Assembly: GCA_945787285.1 (NCBI GenBank)
Contig: CALZIC010000120.1
Coordinates: 1-43,863 of the forward strand
Source: an uncultured Desulfuromonadales bacterium
GTDB lineage: Bacteria > Desulfobacterota > Desulfuromonadia > Desulfuromonadales > Trichloromonadaceae
Direction of reading: 5' to 3'
Length of the DNA stretch: 43,863 nt
Made by a program: the position numbers and the translations under genes. Positions 13,068 to 31,544 of this stretch are shown here, in pieces (position 1 is the first letter of the stretch; each line of letters opens with the position of its first letter). Under the pieces are notes generated by a model. That model worked only from the letters and a program-made list of their open reading frames with translations, was not told the DNA's origin and did no database searches.

Positions 13068-13361
13068 ATGCAAGAACTCACCGGAAAACAGGTGCGTCAC
13101 CTCAGAGGACTGGGGCACCACCTGAAACCTGTCGTCATGATAGGAAAAGAAGAAATAGCGCCAGCCGTGCTGGCTTCGATCGAAGAGGCGCTGAACACCC
13201 ACGAACTGATAAAGGTAAAAATCCAGGAAGGGTGTATCATGGACCGCAAGGACGTGGCCTCGGCCCTCAGTACGGAAACGGGTGCAGCGATCGTTCAGAT
13301 TCTTGGCAAAACCATCCTGCTGTTTCGCCGCAGCGACGACCCGAAGATCAAACTTTCATAG
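13068..13361 (+). CDS. yhbY: ribosome assembly RNA-binding protein YhbY (CRS1/YhbY domain)
   Basis: 97 aa; GKQVRHLRGLGHHLKPVVMIGKEEI, typical CRM domain. Confidence 0.85.
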   Translation: MQELTGKQVRHLRGLGHHLKPVVMIGKEEIAPAVLASIEEALNTHELIKVKIQEGCIMDRKDVASALSTETGAAIVQILGKTILLFRRSDDPKIKLS

Positions 13362-13402
13362 ATTTTTCGGCGCAGCTTAACGGCAGATGGAACTCTGGGC
13401 AT

Positions 13403-13437
13403 AAAAAAAGAGAGGCGAAATCGCCTCTCTTTTTTTA
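13403..13437 (+). terminator. rho-independent terminator after yhbY
   Basis: aaaaaaagAGAGGCGaaatCGCCTCTCttttttt. Confidence 0.75.
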
Positions 13438-13576
13438 TGCTGCATCGGTTTAAGTGAATAACCTTATGTGACCTGACCGGCCAGCGGTGAGGCCGAGAAG
13501 TCTGTTGCCCTATTTCCAGGCCTGCCGGTATTGAGGGCAATTCTCTGGCCGACTGCCCCCCACACAGAAAGGAGCC

Positions 13577-14707
13577 TCAAACCCTTTCGTAGGGATCGAA
13601 CAGCCGATTATATTCATCCATCGCAAAACGATCGGTCATCCCGGCGATGTAGTCACAGACCACCCTTTCCTTGCCGAACAGCTCAAACTTGACCTGAACG
13701 GCGTTGGGCAAAAGGGATGGCGTTTTAATATAATTCTCAAAAAGGTGCTGCAAAATGCGCTCAGCCTTGACCCTCATGCGCTCGACCTTGTAATGCCGGT
13801 ACAGGTTGGTATGCAGAAACTCTTTCAGCTCCCTGCTCCTATGCGTCATGTCTTCCCCCAGGGCGACCAGGCGCCTGGGATGACTGCGGACGGCCTCAAG
13901 ACTCTCAATCCCGTTGCTTTTCAGATTCTTCTCCGTTGTCGCAACCAGGTCTTCGACCAGAGCGCCGATCAGGTGGCTGATCGTCTGGTAGAGGTGGCGT
14001 TCCTGGTTGATGCCGGGGAATTTGCCGGCGACCCGGTCGAAGGTCTCTTTCCAGATTTTCACTTCTGAAAGTTCTTCAAGACGGATATATCCGGACTTGA
14101 GCCCGTCATCGATATCGTGATTGTTGTAGGCGATCTCATCGGCCAGATCGATAAGCTGGGCTTCCATGCCGGGACGCTCTGAAGGCGCATATTCAGCGAC
14201 ATCGTCATCTTCCCCGAGATGGTCGCAGGAATGCTTGACGATTCCCTCGCGGGTTTCCCAGGTAAGATTGAGGCCGGGAAAGCCCGGATACCGCTCCTCG
14301 AGCACCTCAACAGTTCGCAGCGATTGCCGGTTGTGGTCGAAGCCGCCATACTCGGACATCAGGCGATTGAGCACATCTTCGCCGGTATGGCCAAAAGGGG
14401 TATGCCCCAAATCGTGAGCCAGGGACAGCGCCTCCACCAGGTCTTCGTTGAGCCTCAGGCAGCGGGCGATCCCCCGGGCAATCTGCGCCACCTCAAGAGA
14501 ATGGGTCAACCGCGTGCGGTAGTAGTCTCCCTCATGGTTGACGAATACCTGGGTTTTGTACTCCAGACGCCTGAATGCGGCGCAATGAATGATACGGTCG
14601 CGATCCCGTTCGAAAGCAGGGCGGTCGTCTTTAAAGGGTTCGGCATGACGGCGACCGCGGCTGGCACTGCTGAGAGTGGCGTAGGGGGCGAGATCGGGGC
14701 GTTCCAT
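13577..14707 (-). CDS. dgt: deoxyguanosinetriphosphate triphosphohydrolase-like protein (HD domain)
   Basis: HD-domain motifs RLTHSLEVAQIARG and HDLGHTPFGHTGE. Start at MERPDLAPYA (ATG 14707). Confidence 0.85.
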   Translation of the reverse strand: MERPDLAPYATLSSASRGRRHAEPFKDDRPAFERDRDRIIHCAAFRRLEYKTQVFVNHEGDYYRTRLTHSLEVAQIARGIARCLRLNEDLVEALSLAHDLGHTPFGHTGEDVLNRLMSEYGGFDHNRQSLRTVEVLEERYPGFPGLNLTWETREGIVKHSCDHLGEDDDVAEYAPSERPGMEAQLIDLADEIAYNNHDIDDGLKSGYIRLEELSEVKIWKETFDRVAGKFPGINQERHLYQTISHLIGALVEDLVATTEKNLKSNGIESLEAVRSHPRRLVALGEDMTHRSRELKEFLHTNLYRHYKVERMRVKAERILQHLFENYIKTPSLLPNAVQVKFELFGKERVVCDYIAGMTDRFAMDEYNRLFDPYERV

Positions 14708-14904
14708 AAGGGCCTCCACAAAAATACAAATGATAACCAAGGCGACACACGAGACGGAGCTGAACCATTAAACCTTCCGACCTACTCTATGTCAACAGCC
14801 AAGGAAGCTAAACCGTTGACCTTACAAGGCTCTTGTGATAGCTTCGCCCTCAAGTCGGTCCCCTTTCGGGACCGGTAAAAACATAATAAACAAAGGGCTT
14901 CAGG

Positions 14905-15477
14905 TTGCGAATAATCAGTGGCAGCGCCAGGGGAAAACGCCTGGAAACGTTTAAGGGAACGGACATTCGCCCCACACCGGATCGCGTCAGGGGCGCTATA
15001 TTCAGTATGCTGTTCAGCCGCCTGGGATCCTTTCAGGGCAAAACCGTCCTTGACCTGTACGCCGGCACCGGCGCCATGGCCATAGAGGCCCTCAGCCGCG
15101 GAGCATCGAAAGCCTGGCTGGTAGACCAGGGGCCCCAGTCTGCGCAGGTCATCGGCAAAAACCTGGAAAACTGCAGGGTCGCCGAGCGGGCGGTTTATTG
15201 CCGCTCGTCCGTGACCAGAGCTCTGGAACAGCTCGGAGGACAAAAACCGTTCGACCTGATTTTTCTCGACCCTCCCTACAAAAAAGAGCTTGCCACGCAA
15301 ACCCTTCGCCTCCTTGCCGACAAAGGGTTTGTGTCGAAAGACGGCGTCATCTGCGCCGAAGCCGACCGGTCAGAAGAAATCCCGTCAGAATTCGGCAATC
15401 TGACCCGCATTGACCGCCGCGACTACGGCACGACCTCCATCCACCTCTTTGCCCCAATCGACACCGACGAGGCCTGA
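14905..15477 (+). CDS. rsmD: 16S rRNA (guanine966-N2)-methyltransferase
   Basis: 190 aa; MRIISGSARGKRL start (TTG), DLYAGTGAMAIEALSRGA SAM motif, DPPY motif. Confidence 0.85.
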   Translation: MRIISGSARGKRLETFKGTDIRPTPDRVRGAIFSMLFSRLGSFQGKTVLDLYAGTGAMAIEALSRGASKAWLVDQGPQSAQVIGKNLENCRVAERAVYCRSSVTRALEQLGGQKPFDLIFLDPPYKKELATQTLRLLADKGFVSKDGVICAEADRSEEIPSEFGNLTRIDRRDYGTTSIHLFAPIDTDEA

Positions 15478-15480
15478 ACC

Positions 15481-15969
15481 ATGAGAAAACGCATCGCCGT
15501 CTATCCCGGCTCTTTCGATCCGATCACCAACGGTCATCTCGATATCATCAAGCGAGGTCTCGAGGTTTTCGACACAGTCATCGTTGCCGTCGCCAGAAAT
15601 TCCGAAAAATCCGGTCTGTTTACCACCGACGAACGGATCGAGATGATACAGGAAACGGTGGGAGACAACCCCCGCCTGAAGGTCGACACATTTAATGGAC
15701 TGCTGGTCGATTATGTGTCAGCGCAGGGAGCGAGGGTCATTTTACGCGGACTGCGTGCCGTATCCGACTTCGAGTACGAATTCCAGATCGCCCAGATGAA
15801 CCGTTCGGTCAACGAGGACATCGAGACTCTCTTCATGATGACCTCGGTCCCTTATGGCTACCTGAGCTCTTCCATCGTCAAGGAGGTGGCCTCACTCAAA
15901 GGCTCCATCGACACCTTTGTCCCCCCTCCCGTAAAAGCGGCTCTTGAACGAAAATTCAGAAAAGACTAG
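15481..15969 (+). CDS. coaD: phosphopantetheine adenylyltransferase
   Basis: 162 aa; [16 protein letters not shown] signature; conserved rsmD-coaD pairing. Confidence 0.95.
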
Positions 15970-15979
15970 GAGGTCTTCG

Positions 15980-16174
15980 ATGATTACCAAGGACATGACC
16001 ATCGGCGATGTCATGAGGGAGCACCCGGAAACGATTGCGGTTTTCAAGCGATTCGGCCTCAACTGCCATGACTGCCAGATCGCTGACATTGAAGAAGTCG
16101 AGCACGGTGCCGGGGTTCACCAGGTCGACATCGATCAGCTCCTTGGCGAGCTGAACAAAGCCATCGAAGAGTAA
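15980..16174 (+). CDS. DUF1858 domain small redox-disulfide-type protein
   Basis: MITKDMTIGDVMREHPETIAVFKRFGLNCHDCQIA...; taggagg RBS before ATG 15980. Confidence 0.65.
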   Translation: MITKDMTIGDVMREHPETIAVFKRFGLNCHDCQIADIEEVEHGAGVHQVDIDQLLGELNKAIEE

Positions 16175-17003
16175 CCCCGGGAGCCTGTAGGACTTGACGG
16201 ACCGTAACGAGAAATTGGATGTTCGAGACCAGATTTTCGAGAATTTGAGAGCGAATAGCAGGGCTATTTGTCGAAAATTGTCGAGGATACTCCATTTGCT
16301 CAAGCTGGGTGACCAATCGGTCCAAAGCATCGACCACCAGGGCCTCGAGTTGCGCCCCCTTTTCGGCGGTGGCCCGGGTCGGGTCGCCCCAAACCCCGCC
16401 AGGCCAGAAACGGCGCTTGTTTCTCACCAGAATGCCGCTCGGAAAGGACGGAAACTCCCGCCTCCCCTCCCCCTTTACCAGATGCGGGTGCGAGTTGAGA
16501 ATCCGTGAGGTTTCGATCTCGCCGGCGTGCGAATCGCCTTCGGTCTCGATGAGACCGCGCCCCTCCCTTGCCGCCAGCATGTACTCGGTCAAAACGGCGA
16601 TGCCGATATCTTCGAAGCGCTCAAGCAGTTCTTCCCCGGCGTCGATCAGGGCCGAGGTATGGGTCCCGCCGGCATGACCGGTGATCAAAACGAAATTGCG
16701 CAGCCCCTGGCGCCTCAGAGAGGTCACGATGTCGATGGCCAGAGCTCTGATCGTTGACGTGGTGATGCTGATGGTGCCGGGATGTTCGGCGGTGGACCGG
16801 CAGACCCCGTACGGAATCGGCGGGGCGATGAAGATCGGACGTTTCTCTGCGAGACGGCGGCCGACCTCCACGGCATGCAGGGTATCGGTCGAAAGGGGCA
16901 GATGATCGCCGTGCTGCTCGGTCGCCCCGAAGGGGATCAACACCGTGCGGGTCTTTTCGAGCCCATCGGCAAACTCGCACATGGTCATCTCTTCAATAAT
17001 CAT
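16059..17003 (-). CDS. creatininase (creatinine amidohydrolase) family protein; C-terminal ~35 aa are translated from the dispersed repeat
   Basis: Motifs EQHGDHLPLSTD, HAGGTHT, GHAGEIETS. The ORF has no stop until 16059, so it runs through repeat copy A and overlaps the convergent DUF1858 gene. Confidence 0.7.
   Translation of the reverse strand: MIIEEMTMCEFADGLEKTRTVLIPFGATEQHGDHLPLSTDTLHAVEVGRRLAEKRPIFIAPPIPYGVCRSTAEHPGTISITTSTIRALAIDIVTSLRRQGLRNFVLITGHAGGTHTSALIDAGEELLERFEDIGIAVLTEYMLAAREGRGLIETEGDSHAGEIETSRILNSHPHLVKGEGRREFPSFPSGILVRNKRRFWPGGVWGDPTRATAEKGAQLEALVVDALDRLVTQLEQMEYPRQFSTNSPAIRSQILENLVSNIQFLVTVRQVLQAPGVTLRWLCSARQGADRCRPGEPRHRARLLQCQRSGSHGS
16194..16289 (+). repeat. dispersed repeat copy A (~95 bp, about 90 percent identical to 25524-25618)
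   Basis: direct comparison: GACCGtAACGAGAAATTGGATGTTCGAGaCCAG...AATTTGAGAGCGAATAGCAGGGCTATTTGTCGAAAATTGTCGAGGATA. Confidence 0.85.
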
Positions 17004-17014
17004 GCAACCCGCCT

Positions 17015-17776
17015 TTACAGAATATCCATAAACCTGTGGGTCTGGGGAATCACCCGCACCAGGGGGTGTATCCCGGCTAGACGCCCCTGAAAATCGAGGA
17101 GCTTTTGCCCCGAAACGGCGATCCCGCGATCACCGGTGTAAGCCTGCAGAATAATCGTGACTTCGGGCGCTTCTTTTGCCACCAGGCCGGCCACCTTTTC
17201 GAGTTCAGAGACCGAGGTCTCCTCCCCCGCAATAACCTTCACCTGCAGCGAAGTCTTTCGTCCCGCCCGCAGAAATTTCCGATGCGCATCCCAGGGGGTG
17301 GGCACCCCCGTCATCGACTCCAACTTGATGTCCATGGCCACGTTATCGAGCCACGGCAAAACCTTTTCGAGAGCGGCAGGCAGGGTGCCGTTGGTTTCGA
17401 GGTGAACTGGCAGCAGCTTCTGCAGCGAGGGAAGCCACGCGGCCAGAGCATCGGCGTGAACCAGGGGCTCCCCCCCGGTGAGAGAAATCGAGTGATGCGC
17501 CCCGGGAAGAACCTTCAGCCACTGGCAGAGGGTATCGTGAACCAGGTCGAGAGAAACGGGGTTGCGCACCCCGACAAAGACCCCGGACCCGGGAGCGTCC
17601 TCAATACGGCAGGCGTCTTGGGGCTCGAAAGGGGTGTCGCAGTAGCGGCAGGCAAGGTTGCACCCGGCAAAGCGGATGAACACCTGCCGGCAGCCGACCA
17701 GCATCCCCTCCCCCTGGATGGAGGAGAAGACCTCCAGCAGCTGTGCGTCAGTCTTTGCTGTAGCTGGCACAGGCAT
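17015..17776 (-). CDS. queE: 7-carboxy-7-deazaguanine synthase (radical SAM)
   Basis: 253 aa; CNLACRYCDT cluster motif and QueE-like N-terminus (EVFSSIQGEG). Confidence 0.9.
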   Translation of the reverse strand: MPVPATAKTDAQLLEVFSSIQGEGMLVGCRQVFIRFAGCNLACRYCDTPFEPQDACRIEDAPGSGVFVGVRNPVSLDLVHDTLCQWLKVLPGAHHSISLTGGEPLVHADALAAWLPSLQKLLPVHLETNGTLPAALEKVLPWLDNVAMDIKLESMTGVPTPWDAHRKFLRAGRKTSLQVKVIAGEETSVSELEKVAGLVAKEAPEVTIILQAYTGDRGIAVSGQKLLDFQGRLAGIHPLVRVIPQTHRFMDIL

Positions 17777-18119
17777 GGTCCGACTCCCAGACGTTGACCT
17801 TTTCGACCGTGATATTGTCGCTGTTTAAGCGATCGGAAAGCTTATCAAAGAGAAACCGGGCGATATTTTCCGATGACGGACTGAGCTCCCGGAACGGTTC
17901 AAGATCGTTCAAATACTTGTGGTCGAGCAGATCGAGCATGGTGTTGGTTTCCTTTTTGAGGATCTTGAAATCGATCCCCAGGCCAGCCTTGTCCAACTCC
18001 CTGGCGGCAACCGTCACTTCAACCTTCCAGTTGTGCCCATGAAGATTTTCGCAGTCCCCCTGGTAATTCATCAGGTTGTGAGCTGCAGCAAAGTGCGTAT
18101 GAATTGTGAGACGATACAT
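17748..18119 (-). CDS. queD: 6-carboxy-5,6,7,8-tetrahydropterin synthase
   Basis: 123 aa; CENLHGHNWKVEV zinc-binding motif of PTPS/QueD. Confidence 0.9.
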   Translation of the reverse strand: MYRLTIHTHFAAAHNLMNYQGDCENLHGHNWKVEVTVAARELDKAGLGIDFKILKKETNTMLDLLDHKYLNDLEPFRELSPSSENIARFLFDKLSDRLNSDNITVEKVNVWESDHACASYSKD

Positions 18120-18150
18120 CTATAAACTCCTTAAAAGGGTAAAAAGCCAA

Positions 18151-18336
18151 TCAGTCGTACTGCTCTTCGGAAGGGGCGTCTTCTGCGGGAACACGATATT
18201 CCTCCTCCGCCCAGCGGCCAAGATCGATAAGCCGGCACTTCTCGGAACAGAATGGACGATGGGGGTTCCCTTCCCAGCTGACCCTTTCGCCGCAGCGGGG
18301 ACAGCGTACTTTTACCAGTTTTACGTTTCCTGCCAT
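18151..18336 (-). CDS. yacG: DNA gyrase inhibitor YacG (zinc-ribbon)
   Basis: 61 aa; CPRCGERVSWEGNPHRPFCSEKCRLIDLGRWAEEEY. Confidence 0.85.
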   Translation of the reverse strand: MAGNVKLVKVRCPRCGERVSWEGNPHRPFCSEKCRLIDLGRWAEEEYRVPAEDAPSEEQYD

Positions 18337-18416
18337 GAATCTACCTTGTTATTTCTGAATACAACTTTAGCGTACCCGGATTAGCAGGAAAAACCAACCC
18401 CTTGCAGACCCGGACA

Positions 18417-18462
18417 TGAAAAAAGCCCTGACACCGGAAGCATGAGGTCGGGGCTTCTATTT
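18417..18462. terminator. putative bidirectional terminator hairpin
   Basis: gaaaaaaGCCCTGAC-N15-GTCGGGGCttctatttt; A-run before and T-run after. Confidence 0.35.
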
Positions 18463-18793
18463 TATGAAGGAGTCGGCAGACGACCATCAACATAAAAGCT
18501 TAAAAAACAAACAGCGCGGAATATACCTTGAGGGAAGATCCAAGGCAAATGAAAAATCCTGTCCCCCGCTAAGGAATTAATTGGGGATGTATGCGTGTCG
18601 TAACCTTTCGGATGAATGGGGTCGTTATCAAAAGTGGACACCATAGAGGGGGCCGCCATCCGCAAGGCGAGCGAACCATTTTTGAACTATTTGTCAACTA
18701 TTTGCAGTATGACAAAGCTGTTTAACAAAGAAGCTGGACGCAGCTTTCAATTTACTCTAAGGAACGACTCTCCTTTTCCCCAGGCTCTTTTGA

Positions 18794-19114
18794 CTATTGG
18801 ACAGGGCCCTGTTGGCCACAGCGAGTGTCTGCGGCTTGGCCCAAACACTCGAAGCAGTTTCTCAGGGTGCAAAGCCCACAGGAGTGATACATATAAACAG
18901 GGACACCTTGTTTTTTGGCGCTATCAACGGCTTTGTTACGCGCCCCGTGCGAAACCTTGTTGGTGAAAAGAACTACCGCATCGGCGGCTTTAATGCTTTT
19001 GGCGATTTTTGAATTTTCAGTGGAATATATGGTGATTTGATGGCCGTGCTTTTTGGCTTCTCGGCGATAGTGCTGCGCCAGGCGATCCATCCCTCCGATC
19101 AATACTATACTCAT
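18794..19114 (-). CDS. DUF2325 domain protein
   Basis: 106 aa; MSIVLIGGMDRL...AADAVVLFTNKVSHGARNKAVDSAKKQGVPV pattern recalled for DUF2325. Confidence 0.55.
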   Translation of the reverse strand: MSIVLIGGMDRLAQHYRREAKKHGHQITIYSTENSKIAKSIKAADAVVLFTNKVSHGARNKAVDSAKKQGVPVYMYHSCGLCTLRNCFECLGQAADTRCGQQGPVQ

Positions 19115-19494
19115 ATTCCCTTCCTTCCCGTTAAGGTTAAACTCGATACCTAAATGAAAATGATTTTCACCTTCCCTGTCAACCGGGTATAGGACAAAGT
19201 CGGGTTCGACCTAAGCCAGGTGTTCCCTCCAAAAAACCTTTAGTTTTGCTTCCTTCTATATACTTTTGACGACGTCTTGGGAGACTCTCCGAAGGGATCT
19301 CTATTCAATTTCTCGGCACCCTTTTACAAATTATCTTCACCTGGGTACAAAGGTCACTGCATCTATCCGGAGGCAAATGGAAAGAGTCCCAGACAAGGTT
19401 TTTTTGTAATTGATGCATTTTTTTTGTTTTAGGGGTTGATTGTTTCTAAGTGTAACTGTATAAGTTTTTATATATAAACTTTAAAGGAGAAATT

Positions 19495-19932
19495 ATGTCC
19501 ACTTTACTTGAAATGGCTACCGACCTCGTCTCTGCACACGCTTCCACCTCAAAAATGACCAAGGAAGAACTTCTGGCTGAACTCAATGAGGTATACGGGG
19601 TTCTCCAGAAGATGGAGAAGGGTGAAGAGATTGTTACAGAGGGCGCAACCACTGAGGAAGAGGCTGGCCCTGCTGTTTCAATGCGAAAGGCGTTTGGAAA
19701 GAAGCAGGTATTCTGCATGATTTGCGGCAAAGGTTTTACGACTCTTGCTCGTCATCTCAACACTGCCCACGACATGAAGCCTGGAGAGTACAGAAAGCAG
19801 TTCGGTATCCCCAGAACCCAGTCTCTGGCTGCTAAAGACTACTCTGAAAGCAGACGCCAGATGGCTATTGAGAAAGATCTCGGCGCAGGGCTTGCCAAGG
19901 CCCGTGAAGCCAGAGCTAAAAAGAAAAAGTAA
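19495..19932 (+). CDS. MucR/Ros family transcriptional regulator (C2H2-type zinc finger)
   Basis: 145 aa; C-x2-C...H-x4-H zinc finger (FCMICGKGFTTLARHLNTAHDMKPGEYRKQFGIP) typical of Ros/MucR; aaaggag RBS; sits at the start of an AT-rich island. Confidence 0.8.
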   Translation: MSTLLEMATDLVSAHASTSKMTKEELLAELNEVYGVLQKMEKGEEIVTEGATTEEEAGPAVSMRKAFGKKQVFCMICGKGFTTLARHLNTAHDMKPGEYRKQFGIPRTQSLAAKDYSESRRQMAIEKDLGAGLAKAREARAKKKK

Positions 19933-20086
19933 TTCGTTTCTATTTGGAAACAATGGAAAGCCCCCTGGTCCTGATGGATTTGGGGGCTTTTTGTTTTTGG
20001 GTTGCCTGCAGTCTTTCAATTCTATCCATTGAAATTTTTTCAAGAATGGATAAAGTTAGTAAGATTTTTAAAACAGGAGGATCGGC

Positions 20087-20923
20087 CTTGAAATTTATAT
20101 TTTTAATAATTTTATGCCATTTGACTTTATGTTTTTCCGTTTCAGCCGAAACGTCTTTGTGGGTGGTAAATACGGACAATTCCGTCACATATATCGGAGG
20201 CACCAGTCATGTGCTTCGCCCCATTGATTATCCTTTGCCTCATGAATTTGAGGTGGCCTACGCAAACTCCGATTCTATCGTTTTGGAAGCTAATCCCAGC
20301 ACCTTTGCCAGTCCAGCAATTCAGCAACAACTCCTAAGGAGTTCTATTTACAATCTCCTAAAACGTTCAACCTCCTAAGGCAGTATTGCGAAAGTTCGGG
20401 TATTCCAGTTGCCAATTTAATTAAGTTCAAGCCTTCCATGGTAGCCATGGTATTAGTGGTCTTTGAGCTTCAGAAACTTGGCAGTGCCGAAAGTGGGGTG
20501 GATTTTCACTTCCACGCTAGAGCCACTACGGATAAAAAACTTATCGGAGAACTGGAAACGGCTGAGCAACAGCTGGGATTCCTCCTGTCAATGGGCGAAG
20601 GCAACGAGGACCAATTTATAAAGCATACGATTGCGGACCTAAAAAATACCAGGGAGTTTTTTGAAAATTTTATTTTGGCCTGGCGAAATGGAAATGAATC
20701 AGAACTGGAGAACCTTCTTATTACTGCAACAAAAGAGACCTCTCCGGATATCTACAAAACCCTTTTCAAGGACCGTAATGCCGCCTGGCTTCCCATGTTT
20801 GAAAAATACATCGAGTCACAAGAAACGGAGTTCATTTTAGTTGGTGTGGGCCATCTGGTGGGCGAAGACGGCCTGATCGAAACCTTGAGAACTCGCGGGT
20901 TTGATGTGCAAAAGATGAAATAA
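20087..20923 (+). pseudogene. TraB/GumN family protein gene disrupted by a 40-bp insertion (frame break about 20340-20379)
   Basis: N-terminal part in the frame of ORF 19944..20378 (signal peptide then SLWVVNTDNSVTYIGGTSHVLRPIDYPLP). C-terminal part in the frame of ORF 20438..20923, whose coding frame is open back to 20339. Removing 20340-20379 joins ...AIQQQLLR to QYCESSGIPVANLIKFKPSMVAMV... in one frame; the junctions carry a ctcctaagg direct repeat. Confidence 0.6.
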
Positions 20924-20979
20924 TATTTAACATTGTACTTATCAATGTCTGTTGAGCGCTTGCATATTGGTCTAATCCT

Positions 20980-21540
20980 ATGAAAGTACCATTTTTTCAC
21001 TACATTAGATTTTGGGCCTACAATTCCTTCCTCGCCTTTGGGACTGGTTTTGTCATAGGATACCTGTTTCAGAATTTCTTTTTCTTTTTGCTTTCCCCCA
21101 TTACATTTCCCTTCGCCTTTCTTTTTGTTTACCAATATTTCATAGCATCATTTTTCTGGGGTGATCGCAGGGGGGCTTTTGAGTTTTCCTACCTTGAAAG
21201 AGTTGCCTCTACAAATAAGTTCAATCCTGCTTTAGCCACCGTTTTCAAAGAGGTCAAGCAAGAGTACAAGTTGGGAGATCCTCAATCTGCTCTGCAGAAG
21301 CTTCAAAAGGCTGCAAGCTACTATTCATCCAGCTTTGCGGTTCAATTTAAGCTTGCCATTGCGTGTGAGAAACTTGGGCTGGGTGATGAGGCAATTACCG
21401 CATATAAAAACGCATTAGCGGTAGTGCCAAATAATGCACCCAAATTACTTCAACACGTCATAAGACAAATTGAGCATGTTCGCACTAAGGGGCCTCGCAG
21501 AAAGTCGAGTGCCCCAGGGTTGCAAATGGTAATTTATTGA
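20980..21540 (+). CDS. hypothetical membrane protein with C-terminal TPR-like segment
   Basis: 186 aa; hydrophobic N-terminus, AT-rich codon usage like the surrounding island; no recognised domain. Confidence 0.4.
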   Translation: MKVPFFHYIRFWAYNSFLAFGTGFVIGYLFQNFFFFLLSPITFPFAFLFVYQYFIASFFWGDRRGAFEFSYLERVASTNKFNPALATVFKEVKQEYKLGDPQSALQKLQKAASYYSSSFAVQFKLAIACEKLGLGDEAITAYKNALAVVPNNAPKLLQHVIRQIEHVRTKGPRRKSSAPGLQMVIY

Positions 21541-21602
21541 AAAACACCCCAGTGCCGGGGAATTCCTCAAAAGGCATATTTCCTCAACCACCAGGGAGAA
21601 TC

Positions 21603-21998
21603 ATGCAAGTATCTTATCCAACAATTCTAAGAAGATATATGTCAACTTTTATCGATGGGGCTTTCGTCGTCTCGACATTTATTGCGCTTTCATATGTATT
21701 TCAAGAGGATTCTCAACTGGAAAACAATATCCGAATTGCGGTATTTTTTACCATGTTCTTCATATATGAGCCAATATGCACAAGTCTGTTTTGTACTATG
21801 GGCCAAAGGCTTACCGGCATAAGGGTCAGGAAGTTCAACAGTAAAGACAGGATATCGATACCTGCCGCCTACTTACGCATAATTGTGAAGATTGTTCTGG
21901 GCTTTATCTCTCTCCTCACGATCCCTTTCACAAATGGCCGGAGAGCAATTCACGATTTTACGGTTAATTCTGTTGTTATAATGGAAAAAAAAGACTGA
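21603..21998 (+). CDS. RDD family membrane protein
   Basis: RDD-domain pattern (RRYMSTFIDGAFV ... GQRLTGIRV ... RAIHDFTVNSVVI). Start at MQVSYPTIL with gggag RBS; ORF-track start 21537 is probably too far upstream. Confidence 0.6.
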   Translation: MQVSYPTILRRYMSTFIDGAFVVSTFIALSYVFQEDSQLENNIRIAVFFTMFFIYEPICTSLFCTMGQRLTGIRVRKFNSKDRISIPAAYLRIIVKIVLGFISLLTIPFTNGRRAIHDFTVNSVVIMEKKD

Positions 21999-22092
21999 CT
22001 ACTGCCCGTGAGAGTACCCGTACTAAAGAGTCCTGAGGACCCGCATTCTGCCCTGCCGGTGCTGCGTAACGGTTGAAAAGGTCTCCTGATAA

Positions 22093-23043
22093 ATGAACCA
22101 AATTTCCTTCGCAAACTTTCTCCAAAGCTCCCCCTGCATCCTCGGCGAGGGGGCGGTCATCGAGCGCCTTCGACGCAACTGCGACCTGGAACTCGACCCC
22201 TACCTGGTCAATTCGGCCTTTATCTATGAAGATGCAAAACGTGCGGCCCTTGAGGCCATCTATCGGCAGTACCTGGACATCGGTCGCGCGTTCGGCTTGC
22301 CGCTTCTCATGTCCACCCCGACCTGGCGGGCAAGCCGGGAACGGATCGAGGCGGCCGGTTACGCCGGAGCCGATGTGAACGGCGACAATGTCAGGGTTTT
22401 TGATGCTGTGCGAAAGAGTTACGGTGAGTACGCTGAGAACGTTGTTGTCTGCGGTTTGATGAGCTGCCGCGGGGATGCCTACAGCCCTGCTGACGCGCTG
22501 GAAATTGACGAGGCGCTGGAGTTTCACGCCTGGCAGGCTGAGAAGCTGGCGGAGGCAGGAGTTGACTTCCTCCTCGCGGCAACTCTTCCAGCCTTCAGCG
22601 AGGCAACCGGCCTTGCCTTGGCACTTGCCGCCACCGGTAGGTCGTACGTCCTTAGTTTTGTTGTTCGCCCTGAGGGGACACTGCTGGATGGCGCGCCACT
22701 GAAAGAGGTCATCGCTGCCATCGATGCCGCCGTGACTCCACGGCCCTTGGCCTATCTGGTCAACTGCACCCATGCCTCCATTGCCAGGGCCGCGCTGACC
22801 CACGAAGTAAATTCTTCATCCCTGGTCCGGCAACGGATCATCGGCCTGCTGGCCAATACTGCCGCCCTAAGCCCCGAGGAGCTTAACGAGAGCACCAATC
22901 TGGTGGAGGAAGATCCGGAAACCTTTGGCCAAACTGTGGCCGGGCTGCACCGGGATCTGGGCTTGAAGATTCTGGGGGGCTGCTGTGGAACCGACGACCG
23001 GCATATTCGGTCTTTGGCCGCACAGCTTACAACAGGCGGCTAA
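22093..23043 (+). CDS. homocysteine S-methyltransferase family protein (MmuM/BHMT-like)
   Basis: 316 aa; GGCCGT zinc-binding motif near the C-terminus, homocysteine-binding domain layout. Confidence 0.8.
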   Translation: MNQISFANFLQSSPCILGEGAVIERLRRNCDLELDPYLVNSAFIYEDAKRAALEAIYRQYLDIGRAFGLPLLMSTPTWRASRERIEAAGYAGADVNGDNVRVFDAVRKSYGEYAENVVVCGLMSCRGDAYSPADALEIDEALEFHAWQAEKLAEAGVDFLLAATLPAFSEATGLALALAATGRSYVLSFVVRPEGTLLDGAPLKEVIAAIDAAVTPRPLAYLVNCTHASIARAALTHEVNSSSLVRQRIIGLLANTAALSPEELNESTNLVEEDPETFGQTVAGLHRDLGLKILGGCCGTDDRHIRSLAAQLTTGG

Positions 23044-23104
23044 TCGTGCCCTTTAACAGCGAGGTCGAAACCTCAACAGCTCTTTGCCCTCGAATTCCTG
23101 AACA

Positions 23105-23145
23105 ACAAAAGAGCCGGACTGAATTATCAGCCCGGCTCTTTTGAC
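23105..23145. terminator. bidirectional rho-independent terminator between convergent methyltransferase and rtcB
   Basis: aacaacaaaAGAGCCGGactgaattatcagCCCGGCTCTtttg. Confidence 0.75.
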
Positions 23146-23161
23146 TCCAATCTACTTCATT

Positions 23162-24395
23162 TCACTCTGACGCCATCTTCACCAGTCTCGGGTCGAACCG
23201 GGCCACCGTTTCCACCAGATCGGTCTGGGCCGCCATGACCTCATCGATATCCTTGTAGGCCATCGGCACCTCGTCCAGTCCGGCGGAGAGCAGGGTCACT
23301 CCGCGCTCATCGAGAAAAGCGCGTGCCTGCTTCCAGGTGAAATTCTGCCTGGCAGCCTTGCGGCTCATTTTTCGACCGGCACCATGGGAGGCGGAGCAGA
23401 GAGAGTCGGGGTGGCCCTTGCCGCGAACCACGTACCCTGACGTCCCCATGGAACCCGGGATGATGCCGAGAACGCCCATTCCTGCCGGGGTCGCCCCTTT
23501 TCGGTGAACCACCACCTGCTCACCGTTGTGAACCTCATTCCAGGCGAAGTTGTGATGATTCTCCACATCGAGAAGGACCTCGGCCCCGAGATGGTCGGCG
23601 ATGTCACGGTGGATCAGGGCATGATTGGCCGCTGAGTAAAGGCCCATCAGTTCCATGGCATTCCAGTACCCCTGCCCTTCTTCGCTCTGCAGATCGAGCC
23701 AGGCCAGCGGCTGAAGCTGGTTCGGGAGCTCGGGATGCAGCTCACGAGCAACACGGCTGTAGTGTTCAGCGATCGAACCGCCGGTCCCCCTGCTGCCGCT
23801 GTGGCTGAGCAGGGCCAGGTAAGTGCCGGCCTCCAGCCCCAGGTCAGACTGCAAAAGGGTCAGTTCACCAAACTCTACAAAGTGGTTGCCGCTGCCGCTG
23901 GTGCCCAGCTGCTTCCAGGCCTTGTCCTTTAGGCCGCGGGTCAGGCGGGTTATGCTCCAATCTGCATCCATGACATCGTGCTCTTTGCGGTGTGAAAAGG
24001 TGGCCCCGACACCAAAAGAGGTCGATCGGCAGCCCGTACCCCTGATGCGCATCGGGCATCAGCGCGCCGGAGACCGAAACCGGCAACCTGCAGGCGTTTT
24101 CCATCTGCTCTACCGCACTCTGTTCAAGGTCGGTCCCCCAGCGGCAATAGGGAGCAGGATCCTGCCGATGATCGAAGCGGGCCCGGAACTCCTTGACCTC
24201 CTGGTAGGTGAGCGCAAAGGAGCCGAACAGCTCATGCTCAAGATAGTCCTGCGGATTATCAACGACCGCGGACATCATCGCCCGGATCGACTGTTTATCC
24301 TGGCCCGCCCTGGCCGCCTGAGCGGTGGCCTGCTGAGCCAGTTTCATCAGGGAGCCCTTGGGGACCCCGAGATTTGTCAATTCTCTGTTTTTCAT
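23162..24395 (-). pseudogene. rtcB: RNA-splicing ligase RtcB, split into two overlapping ORFs by a frameshift at an A4/T4 run (about 24014-24020)
   Basis: ORF 23865..24395 carries the N-terminal part ending MPDAHQGYGLPI. ORF 23162..24052 carries the rest: GSGNHF, HHNFAWNE, RKGATPAGMGVLGIIPGSMGTSGYVVRGKG, SHGAGRKMSR, MAYKDIDEVMAAQTDLVE. The frames switch right after the metal-binding PDAHQGYG motif. Confidence 0.85.
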
Positions 24396-25462
24396 TGTTG
24401 ATCTCCTTCCTTGCCCGTGATCCGGATCTCCCAGACCTTAGGCGCAACCTTCACCATGTCCACCCAGACCTTAGGCGCAACCTTCACCATGTCCACCTCG
24501 ATATCCAGGAACTCTTTGAGTACTTCGATATTGGTCGTGGTATGGCGACTGGGCGCCAGGGTCCGAAATGCCCCGCCACCGGCCAGGGCCATCGGCAGCA
24601 GCAGCTGGTCGGCCAGGTGCTGCCCCACCGGGACCCCTGCGGCCAGATAGTCCTGAACCTGCTTGACGGTCTGGCTCGCCACCTTTTCGGCCCGCACACG
24701 CCATTCGCCGAAACCGGTGAAGATCTCGGTCAGGTTTTCGCTGGCCACCTCAAGGGTGAGGATATTGCCCGGACCTTGCGATTCAGCGACTTCTTCCACC
24801 TGCAGAGATTCCGCTGGCCAGGAGAGCTTGTTGCGCACCACTCGGATTTCACGCTCGCCGATGCTACGTGGCAGCCTGGCGACCATGGCACTGGCCCGAC
24901 GCCCGACGATATCGCCCCGTTCGAGCAGGCTGATCCTCGAGAAACGGGACACCGGTTCAATATGAACGAAAAACCTTCCGCCACCGGCCGGGTAAAAACC
25001 TGGCCGTTCCAGGGTTGCGGACACCTTGGGCCCCATGCGCTGCAGCAGGGGGAGAAAGGACCGGGCCAGAAAATCGAATGGGGGCGCATGAGGGTTATGG
25101 GTTCCCCCTTCCAGAACCAGTTCCGAAGCCCCTTCCGCCAGGCAAAGGGCCGGCAGAACAGTCTGCAGCACCAGGGTGCAGCTCCCGGCCGTGCCTATGG
25201 AGAAATGATACTGCCCCGCCTCGATGGCCTTGGGAATAAAGACCAGGTCTTGAGAACCGATCCGATTCCCTTCAACCTCGGCAGCACCGACCTCCACTGC
25301 GGCATTCACCGCGGTAAGGTGTTGCCTCATCAGCCCGGGCTTGTTGCGCCGAGCGCGGATTTTTTCGATTCGAAATGGTTTTCCGGTCACCAGGGAGAGG
25401 GCCAGCGAGCTGCGCAGAATCTGTCCGCCTCCTTCGCCTTGGGACCCGTCAATGGTAATCAT
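24392..25462 (-). CDS. rtcA: RNA 3'-terminal phosphate cyclase
   Basis: 356 aa; MITIDGSQGEGGGQILRSSLALSLVTGKPFRI N-terminus and RtcA-wide similarity; 4-bp overlap with rtcB start. Contains an in-frame 33-bp tandem duplication near the 3' end (24432-24497). Confidence 0.9.
   Translation of the reverse strand: MITIDGSQGEGGGQILRSSLALSLVTGKPFRIEKIRARRNKPGLMRQHLTAVNAAVEVGAAEVEGNRIGSQDLVFIPKAIEAGQYHFSIGTAGSCTLVLQTVLPALCLAEGASELVLEGGTHNPHAPPFDFLARSFLPLLQRMGPKVSATLERPGFYPAGGGRFFVHIEPVSRFSRISLLERGDIVGRRASAMVARLPRSIGEREIRVVRNKLSWPAESLQVEEVAESQGPGNILTLEVASENLTEIFTGFGEWRVRAEKVASQTVKQVQDYLAAGVPVGQHLADQLLLPMALAGGGAFRTLAPSRHTTTNIEVLKEFLDIEVDMVKVAPKVWVDMVKVAPKVWEIRITGKEGDQQ
24432..24497 (-). repeat. 33-bp perfect tandem duplication (x2) inside rtcA 3' end, in frame (VDMVKVAPKVW x2)
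   Basis: cagaccttaggcgcaaccttcaccatgtccacc repeated twice in direct sequence. Confidence 0.9.
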
Positions 25463-25523
25463 GGGTTGACTCCTTGCATTTCAGTATTCATGGAATGAGG
25501 CTTACCCAGGAGGCTGTCGGGCT

Positions 25524-25690
25524 TGCCGGACCGAAACGAGAAATTGGATGTTCGAGGCCAGTTTTTCTTGAATTTGAGAGCGAATAGCAGGGCTATTTGT
25601 CGAAAATTGTCGAGGATATGGGCCGATCAGCCTATTTCGGGCTATTTGTCGAAAATTGTCGAGGATATGGGCCGATCAGCCGATTTCGCA
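25524..25690 (+). repeat. dispersed repeat copy B with internal 49-bp tandem duplication (25591-25639 and 25640-25688)
   Basis: the first ~95 bp match 16194-16289; the unit ggctatttgtcgaaaattgtcgaggatatgggccgatcagccNatttcg is repeated twice in tandem with 1 mismatch. Confidence 0.85.
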
Positions 25691-25732
25691 GTCGGTTTCT
25701 GGTAAGTCCGAGAGCCTCCTAGCATACAGCGG

Positions 25733-26839
25733 TCAAAGAAGATTGACCACCCGCTCGGCAAGACCTTTTTCGCCAAGAACGACATTCATTTTGGAACTGC
25801 CGGCCACCTTCTCCAGCACTTCGAGTTCGCGCAGTCGCATGAGGGTCGGGTTGTTCTCCAGCAGGCGGGCCGTATTGGCCTGGCTGCGCATGGCGGCCGT
25901 CTCTTCGCGGCGCACGATGAGGTTGGCCTCCGCGGCCTTGCGTGCCTGGATGACCTGGTTGAGCAGGTCTTTCATCTCCCCCGGCAGGATCAGATCACGG
26001 ATGCCGAGGCGGATGATTTCTATACCGAAACTGCCTGAGCGCTGGCGCAAATTCCCCTCGAGTTCGCCAGCCACCCGGTCCTTTTCACTGAGCAGGGCAT
26101 CGAGGCTGCAAGTTCCGATGATCTCCCGCAGGGCCAGCTGGGCCTCGCGGTAAAGCGCCTGCTCGATGTTTTCAACGGCCTTCACCGCCCGGTGCGGGTC
26201 GGTAACCCGGTAGACGGCCTGGGCGTTGAGACGCAGGGTGACGTTGTCTGCGGTCATGATCTCCTGGCCCGAGATGTCGAGGACCGTCTCACGCAGGTCG
26301 ACCTGCTGAATCCGCAGCCGTCCGGCATTCTTCCAGAACATGTAGCGCCCCGGACCGAAGGTCTTTACGTATTCTCCGTCTTTGAAGAAAACCGCGGCAA
26401 AACCATCTTCGACAACAACACTCTCCAATTTTTCATCGGCCCCCGTCGACAAAAGAATTGCGCTCATCTCCTTGTGCTCAAACCGCACCTGACGTGCATC
26501 AACGATTTCAATCTTGATATCGCGAAGTCCTGTCCAAAGGGCATAGATCCCAGGGCCAACAACCTTGGCAAAACGCCCTTCGATCCAGACCAGGGCTCGC
26601 TGGCTATCCTTAAGGTCGAGCACCACGGCCTCTTCCCCGAGAACGCCCGCCTTGACAATCAGATCAAGCTTGTCGTGCACCAGCCAGGGATCACGCTGGG
26701 AGACTACATCGACCCGGATTTTGTTCAACGGATCGGTAAACCAGTGACGACCGGTGCCCAGAAGACCCTCGAACTCCTTATCTTTGAACAACAGACCCTT
26801 TTCGTGTGAGCGGACTTTTACGCTGCCGATTCCAATCAT
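25733..26839 (-). CDS. SPFH/Band 7 domain protein (stomatin/prohibitin-like) with C-terminal coiled coil
   Basis: SPFH-like core with coiled-coil tail (ARKAAEANLIVRREETAAMRSQANTARLL). Start at MIGIGSVKV (ATG 26839) with ggaggagaaggag RBS. Confidence 0.75.
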   Translation of the reverse strand: MIGIGSVKVRSHEKGLLFKDKEFEGLLGTGRHWFTDPLNKIRVDVVSQRDPWLVHDKLDLIVKAGVLGEEAVVLDLKDSQRALVWIEGRFAKVVGPGIYALWTGLRDIKIEIVDARQVRFEHKEMSAILLSTGADEKLESVVVEDGFAAVFFKDGEYVKTFGPGRYMFWKNAGRLRIQQVDLRETVLDISGQEIMTADNVTLRLNAQAVYRVTDPHRAVKAVENIEQALYREAQLALREIIGTCSLDALLSEKDRVAGELEGNLRQRSGSFGIEIIRLGIRDLILPGEMKDLLNQVIQARKAAEANLIVRREETAAMRSQANTARLLENNPTLMRLRELEVLEKVAGSSKMNVVLGEKGLAERVVNLL

Positions 26840-27036
26840 CTCCTTCTCCTCCTGTTGTCTCCATCCACCCTGGAAATAGGTGGCCCTCGGGGGGCGAGAC
26901 TTCCTCACGTTAGCCACATCGCCGATGCGGAGTGTCGTTTAAGAATATGCGCCCGGTTGTTTTCAGCAGGGGTCGCGGCCATCGGTTCGACTTTTGTTGC
27001 CGCCGAAGGCCGGGTGGCTCTGATCGCTGCCGTCTG

Positions 27037-27050
27037 CTACCGGTCTGCCC
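27037..27050 (-). promoter_or_regulatory. weak candidate sigma54 -24/-12 element (GGCAG-N7-AGCA) upstream of the SPFH gene
   Basis: the reverse complement reads tGGGCAGaccggtAGCAg with correct GG-N10-GC spacing but 2 mismatches to TGGCAC-N5-TTGCA; speculative. Confidence 0.2.
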
Positions 27051-27193
27051 AAACGGAATCCACGCACTGCATAGCATCTGACCGATGTTGTCCTCGACCG
27101 GACCGGGTCCAATCGATTCGGCTGACGGGAAGCCTCTCCCCCCTCAGGCCGGGTTGGTGACCGCCTGCGCGGTCAAGACGGGTTAATAGCCCG

Positions 27194-27264
27194 TTGTTGG
27201 TGCAGGACTCGAACCTGCGACTCCCGTGGGGTACACGGTGCTCTACCGACTGAGCTAACCAGAG
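27194..27264 (-). pseudogene. tRNA-like element / probable degenerate tRNA (intact D-arm and T-arm; 5-nt anticodon loop; acceptor stem only 4 of 7 bp)
   Basis: minus strand reads CTCTGGT-TA-GCTC-AGTCGGTA-GAGC-A-CCGTG-TACCC-CACGG-GAGTC-GCAGG-TTCGAGT-CCTGC-ACCAACA-A. Canonical GCTCAGTCGGTAGAGC D-arm and GGTTCGAGTCC T-arm. Anticodon loop has 5 nt instead of 7. No CCA. Confidence 0.5.
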
Positions 27265-27478
27265 ACTGCTACCGGCCTTCGTTAGAACCCATTTCGGAAC
27301 ACACAGCTCTGACCGCATCGTGCGTAGCGCTGTGAGCCGATGGCCCGGCGGTATCAGCCGCTTGTGTCTTTGGATATTTCAATGGTTGTGCCAAAGGAAT
27401 TCCAAAACCCTGACAATCTCATACTGGCATGTATTTACACTATTTTTACGGTTTAAAGAACAGCTCGTGGATGTTTGC

Positions 27479-27508
27479 TTGACATAACCATTCGGAATTT
27501 TCTATAAA
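27479..27508 (+). promoter_or_regulatory. sigma70-type promoter for rtcR (TTGACA-18 bp-TATAAA)
   Basis: TTGACA 27479-27484, TATAAA 27503-27508, 28 bp before the rtcR ATG. Confidence 0.45.
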
Positions 27509-27535
27509 TGCCTATACTTTTCTATAGGATTTTAT

Positions 27536-29146
27536 ATGAAAAAATCAGTCGCCATCGGCCTGCTCGGACCGGTTCTGGATAACGGCAAAGGCGCTAAGCG
27601 CTGGGAGCGCTGGCGCCCCTCGGTCGCACTCTGTCAACACGAGGAGCTGCTCGTTGACCGTTTCGTCCTGCTCTACCAGCGGCGCTACGCCAGCCTTCTG
27701 GAACGCATTGTCGAAGACATTCGCCAGGTCTCCCCGGAAACGGAAGTCGTCCCTCAGCTCATGGAGTTCGACGACCCGTGGGATTTCGAAAACGTCTTTG
27801 GAGCCCTGCACGACTTCGCCCGTGAATATCCGTTTGATCCCGACCAGGAGGACTACCTGGTACATATCACGACAGGCACCCATGTGGCCCAGATCTGCCT
27901 GTTTCTGCTGACCGAGGCGCATTATTTCCCGGCCCGCCTGATCCAGACCAGCCCCTCGCGCAAAGCGGACCAGCTTGCCTCGGGCACCTATTCCATCATC
28001 GACCTCGACCTTTCGCGCTACGACCGCATTGCCACCCGTTTCAGCCAGGAACAGCGGGATGATATCTCGTTTCTCAAATCAGGCATTGAAACCCGCAATG
28101 CCCGATTCAACCATTTGATCGCGCAGATCGAGCAGGTGGCGATCCGGTCGGTGGACCCGATTTTGATTACCGGCCCAACAGGTGCAGGCAAGTCAAAACT
28201 GGCCCGACGGATATTCGAACTGAAAAAGGCGCGGCGCCAAATCCCAGGGAACTTCGTCGAGGTCAATTGCGCCACCCTGCGTGGCGACGCCGCCATGTCC
28301 GCCCTCTTCGGCCATCGCCGCGGGGCGTTCACCGGCGCTTTGCAGGACCGTCAGGGGCTGCTGCGTGCTGCCGACGGCGGGATTCTCTTTCTCGATGAAG
28401 TGGGGGAGTTGGGACGGGATGAGCAGACCATGCTGCTGCGCGCCGTCGAGGAGAAGCGTTTTATGCCCCTGGGCTCGGATGCTGAAACAGAGAGCGATTT
28501 CCAACTTCTATGCGGTACCAATCGGGACCTTTACCAGGATGTGGACAAGGGGCGCTTCCGTGAAGACCTGCTGGCCCGGATAAACCTCTGGACCTTCGCT
28601 CTGCCGGGGCTGGCCGATCGCCCCGAGGATATCGAACCCAATCTCGATTACGAGCTCGACCGGTTCACGAGCCGCACCGGTGCCCGCATCACCATCAACA
28701 AAGAGGCGCGCCAGCATCTGCTCCGTTTCGCCACCTCCGCCGAGGCCACCTGGCCAGCCAATTTCCGCGATCTCAACGGCGCGGTCACGCGCATGGCCAC
28801 CCTCGCCCCGACCGGCCGCATCACCACCGAAACCGTAAAGGAAGAGGTTGCGCGTCTTCACCATGCCTGGCGGTCGCGAGGTGGAAATATAAAGGAGGAA
28901 ATTCTTCTGGAAGTACTCGGGCAGGGTGGGATTGAAAAACTCGACCTGTTCGACCGGGCCCAACTGGCCGAGGTGTTGCGCGTCTGCCGCGCCTCAAAAA
29001 ACCTTTCGGAGGCGGGCCGCACCCTGTTTGCCGTGTCGCGCCAGGAGAAAAAGCAGGCCAACGACGCCGACCGACTGCGCAAGTATCTCGCCCGGTTTGA
29101 CCTGAACTGGGAAAGCGTCCGAAGCACGGGGTCCACACCTCATTAA
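27536..29146 (+). CDS. rtcR: sigma54-dependent transcriptional regulator RtcR (N-terminal CARF domain, AAA+ sigma54-interaction domain)
   Basis: 536 aa; collinear with E. coli RtcR as recalled (MKKSVAIGLLGPVLDNGKGAKRWERWRPSVALCQHEEL..., DYLVHITTGTHVAQICLFLL, ARLIQTSPSRK, GPTGAGKS Walker A, GAFTGA, FREDLLARINLWTF). Confidence 0.9.
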   Translation: MKKSVAIGLLGPVLDNGKGAKRWERWRPSVALCQHEELLVDRFVLLYQRRYASLLERIVEDIRQVSPETEVVPQLMEFDDPWDFENVFGALHDFAREYPFDPDQEDYLVHITTGTHVAQICLFLLTEAHYFPARLIQTSPSRKADQLASGTYSIIDLDLSRYDRIATRFSQEQRDDISFLKSGIETRNARFNHLIAQIEQVAIRSVDPILITGPTGAGKSKLARRIFELKKARRQIPGNFVEVNCATLRGDAAMSALFGHRRGAFTGALQDRQGLLRAADGGILFLDEVGELGRDEQTMLLRAVEEKRFMPLGSDAETESDFQLLCGTNRDLYQDVDKGRFREDLLARINLWTFALPGLADRPEDIEPNLDYELDRFTSRTGARITINKEARQHLLRFATSAEATWPANFRDLNGAVTRMATLAPTGRITTETVKEEVARLHHAWRSRGGNIKEEILLEVLGQGGIEKLDLFDRAQLAEVLRVCRASKNLSEAGRTLFAVSRQEKKQANDADRLRKYLARFDLNWESVRSTGSTPH

Positions 29147-29206
29147 TCACTGGGGCGGAGAGGCACCTGCCATTTCACGTCCATGTGTTTTACCTGGTGA
29201 AATTTT

Positions 29207-31543: not shown

Positions 31544-31544
31544 A

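Follow-up and report, generated by a model that had tools for sequence, protein, structure and literature searches.

A probable strain-variable mosaic islet with a deletion-broken TraB/GumN gene in a Desulfuromonadales-type chromosome

Is the low-GC stretch of a Desulfuromonadales contig a single acquired island headed by a MucR/Ros-type regulator, and what broke the TraB/GumN gene that lies within it? The contig in question is CALZIC010000120.1 of GenBank assembly GCA_945787285.1, from an uncultured Desulfuromonadales bacterium. We analysed the whole NCBI contig, 43,863 nucleotides in length (the window), which presumably stems from a metagenome-assembled genome. A first description made without database searches (the sequence-only reading) had placed an AT-rich island at 19.1-22.0 kb and had seen in it a possible self-silencing module, with a TraB/GumN gene inactivated by a 40-bp insertion. 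Our analysis indicates that the stretch probably belongs to a small strain-variable mosaic islet at 18.56-23.13 kb in a Desulfuromonadales-type chromosome, with a TraB/GumN gene broken by a deletion.

Extent and make-up of the variable segment

The composition profile bore out the sharp drop in GC content, giving 0.41-0.49 for 19.0-22.0 kb against 0.57-0.62 on both sides. Per-gene GC is 0.40-0.44 for the TraB/GumN gene, 0.42 for a gene encoding a transmembrane (TM) TPR protein and 0.39 for an RDD-family gene, and the flanking genes that are conserved in a close relative range from 0.56 to 0.66, except QueD (0.50). At third codon positions (GC3) these three AT-rich genes show 0.40-0.49, compared with 0.56-0.79 for the surrounding genes and 0.52 for the MucR gene. 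Composition thus deviates from the host over 20.0-22.0 kb (GC 0.42). The deviation is not specific for the MucR gene, since the dip recurs at every homologous MucR locus, and it does not extend to a homocysteine S-methyltransferase-family gene further right (GC 0.60).

We compared the window with the relative GCA_945787145.1 (approximately 85% DNA identity), two contigs of which align to it. One (L066) aligns to 10938-18560 with 74-85% DNA identity, and the other (L067) to 23128-29121 with 86-89%. Synteny stops at 18560 and restarts at 23128, and the genes in between do not occur at those contig ends. Past the break points, unrelated genes follow in the relative, namely those for a DUF2278/LTD protein and a 1090-residue protein on one contig and a GC-rich gene of 187 residues on the other, after which both contigs end. 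The segment is therefore absent from the syntenic site in this one relative, as judged across two separate contigs. Because synteny breaks and resumes at these positions, the variable segment is larger than first reported, and it takes in the DUF2325 and the GC-normal S-methyltransferase genes.

18557..23127, no strand: strain-variable segment, situated between two blocks conserved in the closest relative

To the left of the segment core lie the DUF2325, YacG, QueD and QueE genes; to the right lie the S-methyltransferase-family gene and the rtcBA-rtcR locus. The proposal of an acquired AT-rich island is therefore upheld as far as membership of the flexible genome goes, since the DNA is lacking at the syntenic site of the relative. 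Its limits have to be moved outwards to 18557-23127, and the idea of a single unit gives way to a mosaic.

The islet would consist of three parts rather than one module, put together piecemeal from accessory genes of different origins. The first would be the divergent DUF2325/MucR pair, with an ordinary, resident-type MucR gene that would form a transcription unit by itself, running from an AT-rich leader to a terminator of its own. The second would comprise the low-GC TraB/GumN, TM+TPR and RDD genes for exported or membrane proteins, probably derived from lower-GC lineages; the closest TraB homologues are found in genomes of 0.41-0.43 GC. The third would be the S-methyltransferase-family gene, with its host-like GC and patchy distribution. 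In its deviating composition, patchy accessory genes, absence from a close relative and possession of a pseudogene, the segment resembles the genomic islets, or flexible-genome hot spots, that lie between conserved blocks. It differs from these in being a mosaic with three or more origins, not a single acquired element, and in its lack of an integrase, a flanking tRNA and clear direct repeats. Gene calls and Pfam searches gave no integrase or transposase gene in 18.5-23.2 kb, there is no tRNA at the segment borders (the sole tRNA-like gene lies at 27.2 kb), and the only flanking direct repeat found is a 15/16 match at 18780 and 23131, of which roughly 0.2 would be expected by chance. We rejected this repeat as a pair of att sites, given that it lies off the left boundary and is close to what chance would give.

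The lesion in the TraB/GumN gene

The TraB/GumN gene is indeed split between two frames, as had been observed from the sequence alone. The features at issue are as follows.

20088..20354, plus strand: 5' part of the TraB/GumN pseudogene, frame 0 (PF01963 positions 2-66; alignment to 119 homologues; signal peptide and GGTSH motif)
20354..20923, plus strand: 3' part of the TraB/GumN pseudogene, frame 2 (PF01963 positions 77-262, E=8.9e-42; VGVGHLVG motif)
20352..20356, plus strand: putative deletion junction, about 28 nt (9 codons + 1 nt) gone, frame 0 to frame 2 (from comparison with intact homologues)
20331-20339 and 20372-20380, plus strand: 9-bp repeat pair CTCCTAAGG, coding sequence for Leu-Leu-Arg in two frames, a chance repeat

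The likely start codon, read from the sequence, is a TTG at 20088 behind AGGAGGA at 20075-20081, and the frame-0 open reading frame (ORF) continues to a stop at 20376-20378. To locate the lesion we used 119 intact homologues (39-53% identity, from several orders), together with a 15-sequence alignment. The evidence for frame 0 extends to 20354, where that for frame 2 begins. The stretch between the anchors SIVLEAN and KFKPSM is 65 residues long in 118 homologues and 66 in the remaining one, but 56 in the window read with one frame switch. The nine residues missing in the window (typically DELSLDKVL) are absent exactly at the switch, and none of the 119 homologues is gapped in those columns. 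Translation from the TTG at 20088 gives 278 residues, and adding the missing nine gives 287, the length of most intact homologues. Because the frame switches at 20354 and the nine residues are absent precisely there, the most economical account would be a single deletion of 27+1 = 28 nt (or any 3n+1 near that) at about 20352-20356. Such a deletion would have taken out a loop segment that all intact homologues possess and changed the reading frame, so that GTxH in the N-terminal part is separated from GxxH in the C-terminal part.

Reconstructed with one frame switch, the protein gives a single PF01963 match (187.8 bits, positions 2-262 of 263). It retains all 54 invariant columns of the 15-sequence alignment, with no second lesion, and the motif columns G51, G52, T53, H55, G267 and H270 are invariant. 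The reconstruction is thus like the YbaP-type periplasmic proteins of the TraB/PrgY/GumN (Tiki-like) superfamily in its whole-domain match with GTxH and GxxH motifs (GGTSH and GVGHLVG) and in its signal peptide. It differs from intact members in its broken frame and nine missing residues, so that the sequence as it stands cannot yield a full-length product, and the gene in it is inactivated. Programmed frameshifting was dismissed, as recoding cannot supply the nine conserved residues missing at the junction.

The sequence-only reading had instead proposed a precise 40-bp insertion or duplication at 20340-20379, bounded by the CTCCTAAGG repeats, the excision of which would restore the native gene. 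We give this virtually no credence. The 9-bp repeats do exist, and removing 41 bp (20340-20380) does open the frame. However, the 40-bp excision leaves stop codons in place and the downstream part out of frame, and the junction that had been quoted for it (LLR followed by QYCESS) requires the 41-bp version. Moreover, the proposed insert belongs to the coding sequence and encodes conserved family residues in two frames that meet inside it. Its frame-2 peptide SPKTFNLLR falls inside the Pfam match of the C-terminal half and aligns with the conserved SPQTYDLLR of intact homologues, in which these columns hold S in 92 of the 119, P in 64, T in 90, an aromatic residue in 115 (Y 106, W 5, F 4) and L in all 119. 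The first 15 bases of the insert encode SSIYN in frame 0, which aligns without gaps to RKGIYND-type sequence (Y in 111/119). Presence of the segment in intact homologues, which the insertion proposal had itself named as the observation that would count against it, is what we found in the 119. Excising 41 bp leaves 42 residues between the two anchors, and a protein 23 residues short. The excised version matches PF01963 in two pieces with 176.9 bits, 11 bits less than the one-switch reconstruction. On a profile built from the 119 homologues it scores 363.5 bits in two domains, 18 bits less than the 381.9 bits in one domain obtained with a switch after IYN. As for the repeats, the window has about 20 places where an isolated 9-mer is directly repeated within 60 bp, compared with 11.6 +/- 4.8 in composition-preserving shuffles. 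Repeats at such spacing are therefore expected by chance about 12 times per window, and these, although present, do not mark the ends of an insertion.

Several points weigh against a mosaic islet with a single deletion in TraB. The two contigs of the relative are separate and end in non-homologous DNA, so a rearrangement instead of gain or loss is possible at the segment itself, and the lack of an integrase, a flanking tRNA and convincing flanking repeats gives no pointer to either the mechanism or the direction (gain here or loss in the relative). At TraB, the nearest intact homologue is only 52-53% identical, and the gap could represent an older, in-frame, lineage-specific shortening combined with a separate 1-nt frameshift. 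Under this two-event explanation the loop would be naturally nine residues shorter, and a 1-nt deletion (or 2-nt insertion) would have followed within 20337-20356. In its favour, frame-2 KEFYLQ scores nearly as well as frame-0 RSSIYN (378.1 bits with the earlier switch against 381.9), and there is no orthologue above 53% identity to fix the ancestral length. We nevertheless regard it as quite unlikely, in view of the ungapped columns in all 119 homologues and the exact sum to the family length, and in that it calls for two events where one suffices.

Sequence likewise cannot tell a deletion in the organism from one in the assembly only, and the out-of-frame deletion found 4 kb away in rtcB is compatible with both. 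The retention of all invariant residues, with no other decay, argues that the TraB lesion is either recent or an artefact. If the frameshift had arisen as an artefact in assembling the metagenomic contig or calling its consensus, the organism's gene would be intact, and the rtcB deletion (146 bp) together with an exact 33-bp tandem duplication in rtcA may point to local assembly irregularities. Against this, deletions of 28 and 146 bp are unlike the usual homopolymer-type sequencing errors, and there is no repeat at either junction by which a collapse could be explained. An artefact is unlikely in our judgement, and we favour a single deletion in the gene. The outcome matters little beyond annotation: TraB/GumN should be recorded as a deletion pseudogene (or the reads checked), not as disrupted by an insertion, and the variable segment as 18.56-23.13 kb.

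The MucR/Ros gene and its AT-rich leader

If the segment is a mosaic, is the MucR gene tied to the AT-rich genes that follow it? The features on which this turns are the gene, the regions on either side of it and its divergent neighbour.

19495..19932, plus strand: Ros/MucR-family C2H2 zinc-finger regulator, 145 residues (PF05443, 129.3 bits, cut-off 25.4)
19115..19494, no strand: AT-rich divergent intergenic region, GC 0.39, with the presumed promoters of the DUF2325 and MucR genes
19952..19998, plus strand: intrinsic-terminator-like hairpin ending the MucR transcription unit (fold -32.3 kcal/mol, z=-5.5), followed by a U tract
18794..19114, minus strand: DUF2325 protein, 106 residues (PF10087, E=2.6e-27), divergent from the MucR gene

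The assignment to the Ros/MucR family, with its C2H2 finger, is confirmed by a full-length match to PF05443 (E=1e-37), in which residues 4-130 cover profile positions 2-123 of 123. The protein also aligns to Ros87 (2JSP, E=1.6e-14), over the C-terminal 78 residues only, with the Cys-x2-Cys-x9-His-x4-His site conserved (vfCmiCgkgfttlarHlntaH over ivClECggsfkslkrHltthH). We take the zinc ligands of Ros to be Cys79, Cys82, His92 and His97. With its full Pfam match, zinc site and N-terminal domain, the protein is like Agrobacterium Ros and Sinorhizobium MucR1, and the region upstream of its gene is AT-rich, as at autoregulated mucR/rosR promoters. It differs from Ros and MucR1 in coming from a Desulfuromonadales-type genome, and DNA binding, oligomerisation and silencing are only predicted for it here. 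A phage origin was rejected, no relative being found among viral contigs.

A MucR homologue had been thought unusual in a deltaproteobacterium. It is in fact common: we found 1173 homologues at E<=1e-8, and those with a source name all come from Desulfuromonas, Desulfuromonadales, Trichloromonadaceae or Geopsychrobacteraceae, the top matches being 62-85% identical. Alpha- and delta-proteobacteria have already been named as the possible ancestral source of the family (PMC9410896, introduction). Our literature search on MucR studies surfaced alphaproteobacterial work only. To our knowledge, no Desulfuromonadales member of the family has been studied, and silencer action outside the alphaproteobacteria has not been tested experimentally.

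Six homologous MucR loci (L059 and L061-L065) share the compositional dip. The gene itself has a GC of 0.51-0.55 and the 400 bp upstream 0.41-0.44, in loci that otherwise range from 0.55 to 0.65, and host-level GC is regained within about 1 kb downstream. Because the six loci share it, the dip at 19.1-19.9 kb is characteristic of the gene family and gives no sign of joint arrival with the AT-rich genes. AT-rich DNA of about 400-500 bp precedes MucR at all seven loci examined (the six and the window), whatever the GC of the host locus. This DNA is a candidate for a conserved autoregulatory leader, plausibly an AT-rich one as in alphaproteobacteria, to which the MucR protein, by analogy, probably binds along with other AT-rich DNA. 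In the window, the intergenic region at 19115-19494 is conserved with relatives only in its last ~65 bp. At the other end, homology with two MucR loci (L059 and L060) stops at 19999. Since the gene ends in a strong hairpin and a U tract, it is predicted to be monocistronic.

The genes that follow MucR differ from locus to locus. None of the closest homologues (the same six loci) precedes TraB, TPR or RDD genes or an extended AT-rich tract. In GCA_945787145.1 the nearest MucR (91% amino acid identity) lies on a third contig, between genes for DUF4340 and a multihaem cytochrome; its DNA similarity to the window is confined to 19428-19916, and no DUF2325 gene stands beside it. The DUF2325/MucR pair recurs at one locus (L059) with ~80% DNA identity, where a transposase fragment adjoins it and the gene that follows is unrelated. 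At five further DUF2325 loci (one 81% identical) MucR is lacking. We therefore rejected the pair as a general conserved or mobile cassette.

These observations bear on the self-silencing module, in which MucR would have been acquired with the AT-rich genes and would repress them, like the H-NS-like proteins of some plasmids and islands. MucR is a silencer of AT-rich DNA in alphaproteobacteria (PMC9410896, PMC8857273), its gene here adjoins 2 kb of DNA with a GC of 0.42, and the different contexts of the gene in close relatives show that it moves. All the same, it has its own terminator, its closest homologues are not followed by such genes or by a long AT-rich tract, and its GC3 of 0.52 lies above the 0.40-0.49 of the three AT-rich genes. 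In addition, the six loci of three TraB homologues examined (L001-L006) have varied contexts, without MucR, TPR or RDD neighbours. We consider the module very unlikely. MucR, with its own terminator, a family-wide GC dip and closest homologues in other contexts, is not the leading gene of a unit that includes the AT-rich genes, and the mosaic, with a MucR gene transcribed on its own, remains our preferred explanation.

Plasmids and islands are known to carry H-NS-family 'stealth' silencers, for example Sfh of R27. The locus is like these in that a silencer-type nucleoid-associated gene stands beside AT-rich accessory DNA, and unlike them in that MucR and the AT-rich genes are never linked in the relatives examined. 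Repression of the neighbouring AT-rich genes by the window MucR is thus a matter of conjecture. It is doubtful, moreover, that the Desulfuromonadales MucR proteins as a whole serve as the H-NS-like xenogeneic silencers of the order, each with a ~400-bp AT-rich autoregulatory leader, with the window copy silencing the adjacent TraB, TPR and RDD genes. The wider point is that MucR homologues are numerous in Desulfuromonadales-type genomes, always behind an AT-rich leader, and that this locus offers no special handle on them.

Remaining genes of the segment and the flanking DNA

The two genes downstream of TraB were recovered by Pfam as the TM+TPR and RDD-family membrane proteins that had been named from the sequence, and the segment ends with the S-methyltransferase gene and a hairpin.

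20980..21540, plus strand: membrane-anchored TPR protein, 186 residues, with N-terminal hydrophobic segments (TPR_2 and TPR_19 above Pfam cut-offs)
21603..21998, plus strand: RDD-family small membrane protein (PF06271, E=2e-10, 41.5 bits, cut-off 24.1)
22093..23043, plus strand: homocysteine S-methyltransferase-family gene, GC 0.60, inside the variable segment (PF02574, E=4e-36)
23106..23143, no strand: hairpin between the convergent S-methyltransferase and rtcB genes (fold -25.7 kcal/mol, z=-8.2)

The TM+TPR family is very small, with 8 proteins detected among 5.8 billion. Its only named homologue (54% identity) is in Desulfuromonas sp. TF (KI421421.1; L068 6811-11000), directly after a tyrosine integrase. 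That stretch lies downstream of ftsZ at the end of the dcw cluster, has a low GC (0.38-0.53) and hypothetical genes, and looks like an integrated element. The RDD gene likely starts at an ATG at 21603 behind GGGAGA; identity to the nearest of its 829 relatives at E<=1e-3 is about 55%. A conserved TraB-TPR-RDD module was rejected, as the arrangement was not seen around the three TraB homologues or the TPR homologue of Desulfuromonas sp. TF.

The S-methyltransferase gene is patchily distributed. A scan of a genome collection gave homologues of 64-84% identity at 52 loci in 50 genomes, including metagenome-assembled genomes of the betaproteobacterial Dechloromonas and Rhodocyclaceae, and no homologue of 13 tested flanking window proteins occurred within 10 kb of these 52 loci. 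This result bears on the distribution of the gene, not on the islet. In the alignment with L067, the right boundary of the variable segment falls within the hairpin at 23106-23143. Rfam at its gathering threshold gave no structured RNA in the AT-rich intergenic regions. A defence system was rejected, since none of the six segment proteins matched a PADLOC model; NCBIfam added nothing. Membership of PF05443, PF01963 and PF06271 was found in every case tested, the exception to intactness being TraB. Every component of the segment belongs to a known family, and nothing in it would surprise a specialist.

The rtc locus beside the segment has irregularities of its own. The rtcB gene (23162-24395, minus strand) is also a deletion pseudogene, with its halves in different frames and a junction at 24022/24023; about 146 bp (residues 125-171) are missing relative to the intact 459-residue RtcB of GCA_945787145.1. 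Two out-of-frame deletions, in TraB and rtcB, thus occur within 4 kb. The rtcA gene (24392-25462, minus strand) carries the exact 33-bp tandem duplication at 24430-24497, and its product has 356 residues compared with 345 in the relative, consistent with an in-frame duplication of 11 residues. A further tandem direct repeat, two copies of about 49 bp, lies at 25590-25680 between a Band7/SPFH gene and rtcA. ARAGORN called the tRNA-like gene at 27193-27264 (minus strand) as tRNA-Gly, its anticodon being the unusual ACC, and the Rfam tRNA model scores it at 39 bits. It sits between the Band7-rtcA-rtcB genes and the divergent rtcR, and it may not be a decoding tRNA but a tRNA-like element belonging to the rtc locus.

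Differences from GCA_945787145.1 are also seen outside the segment. Inside the otherwise syntenic left block, the relative has a GGDEF/EAL gene of 693 residues (L066 9941-12022) that is absent from the window at about 13436-13579. A 150-bp segment with 77% identity is common to window 30025-30175 and L067 3399-3540, which are not syntenic; its two copies run in opposite directions, and it may be a small dispersed repeat. Finally, a second variable region of low GC occupies 29122-34000 (the low-GC stretch itself being 29.5-34 kb). It contains a Peptidase_M74-like gene, an unassigned ORF of 402 residues, an EF-hand protein gene containing five tandem repeats of 18 bp (32138-32225) and a transposase (32712-33929) whose domains are DDE_Tnp_1 and DUF4372, and the relative has CHAT and caspase-like (Peptidase_C14) genes at this position instead.

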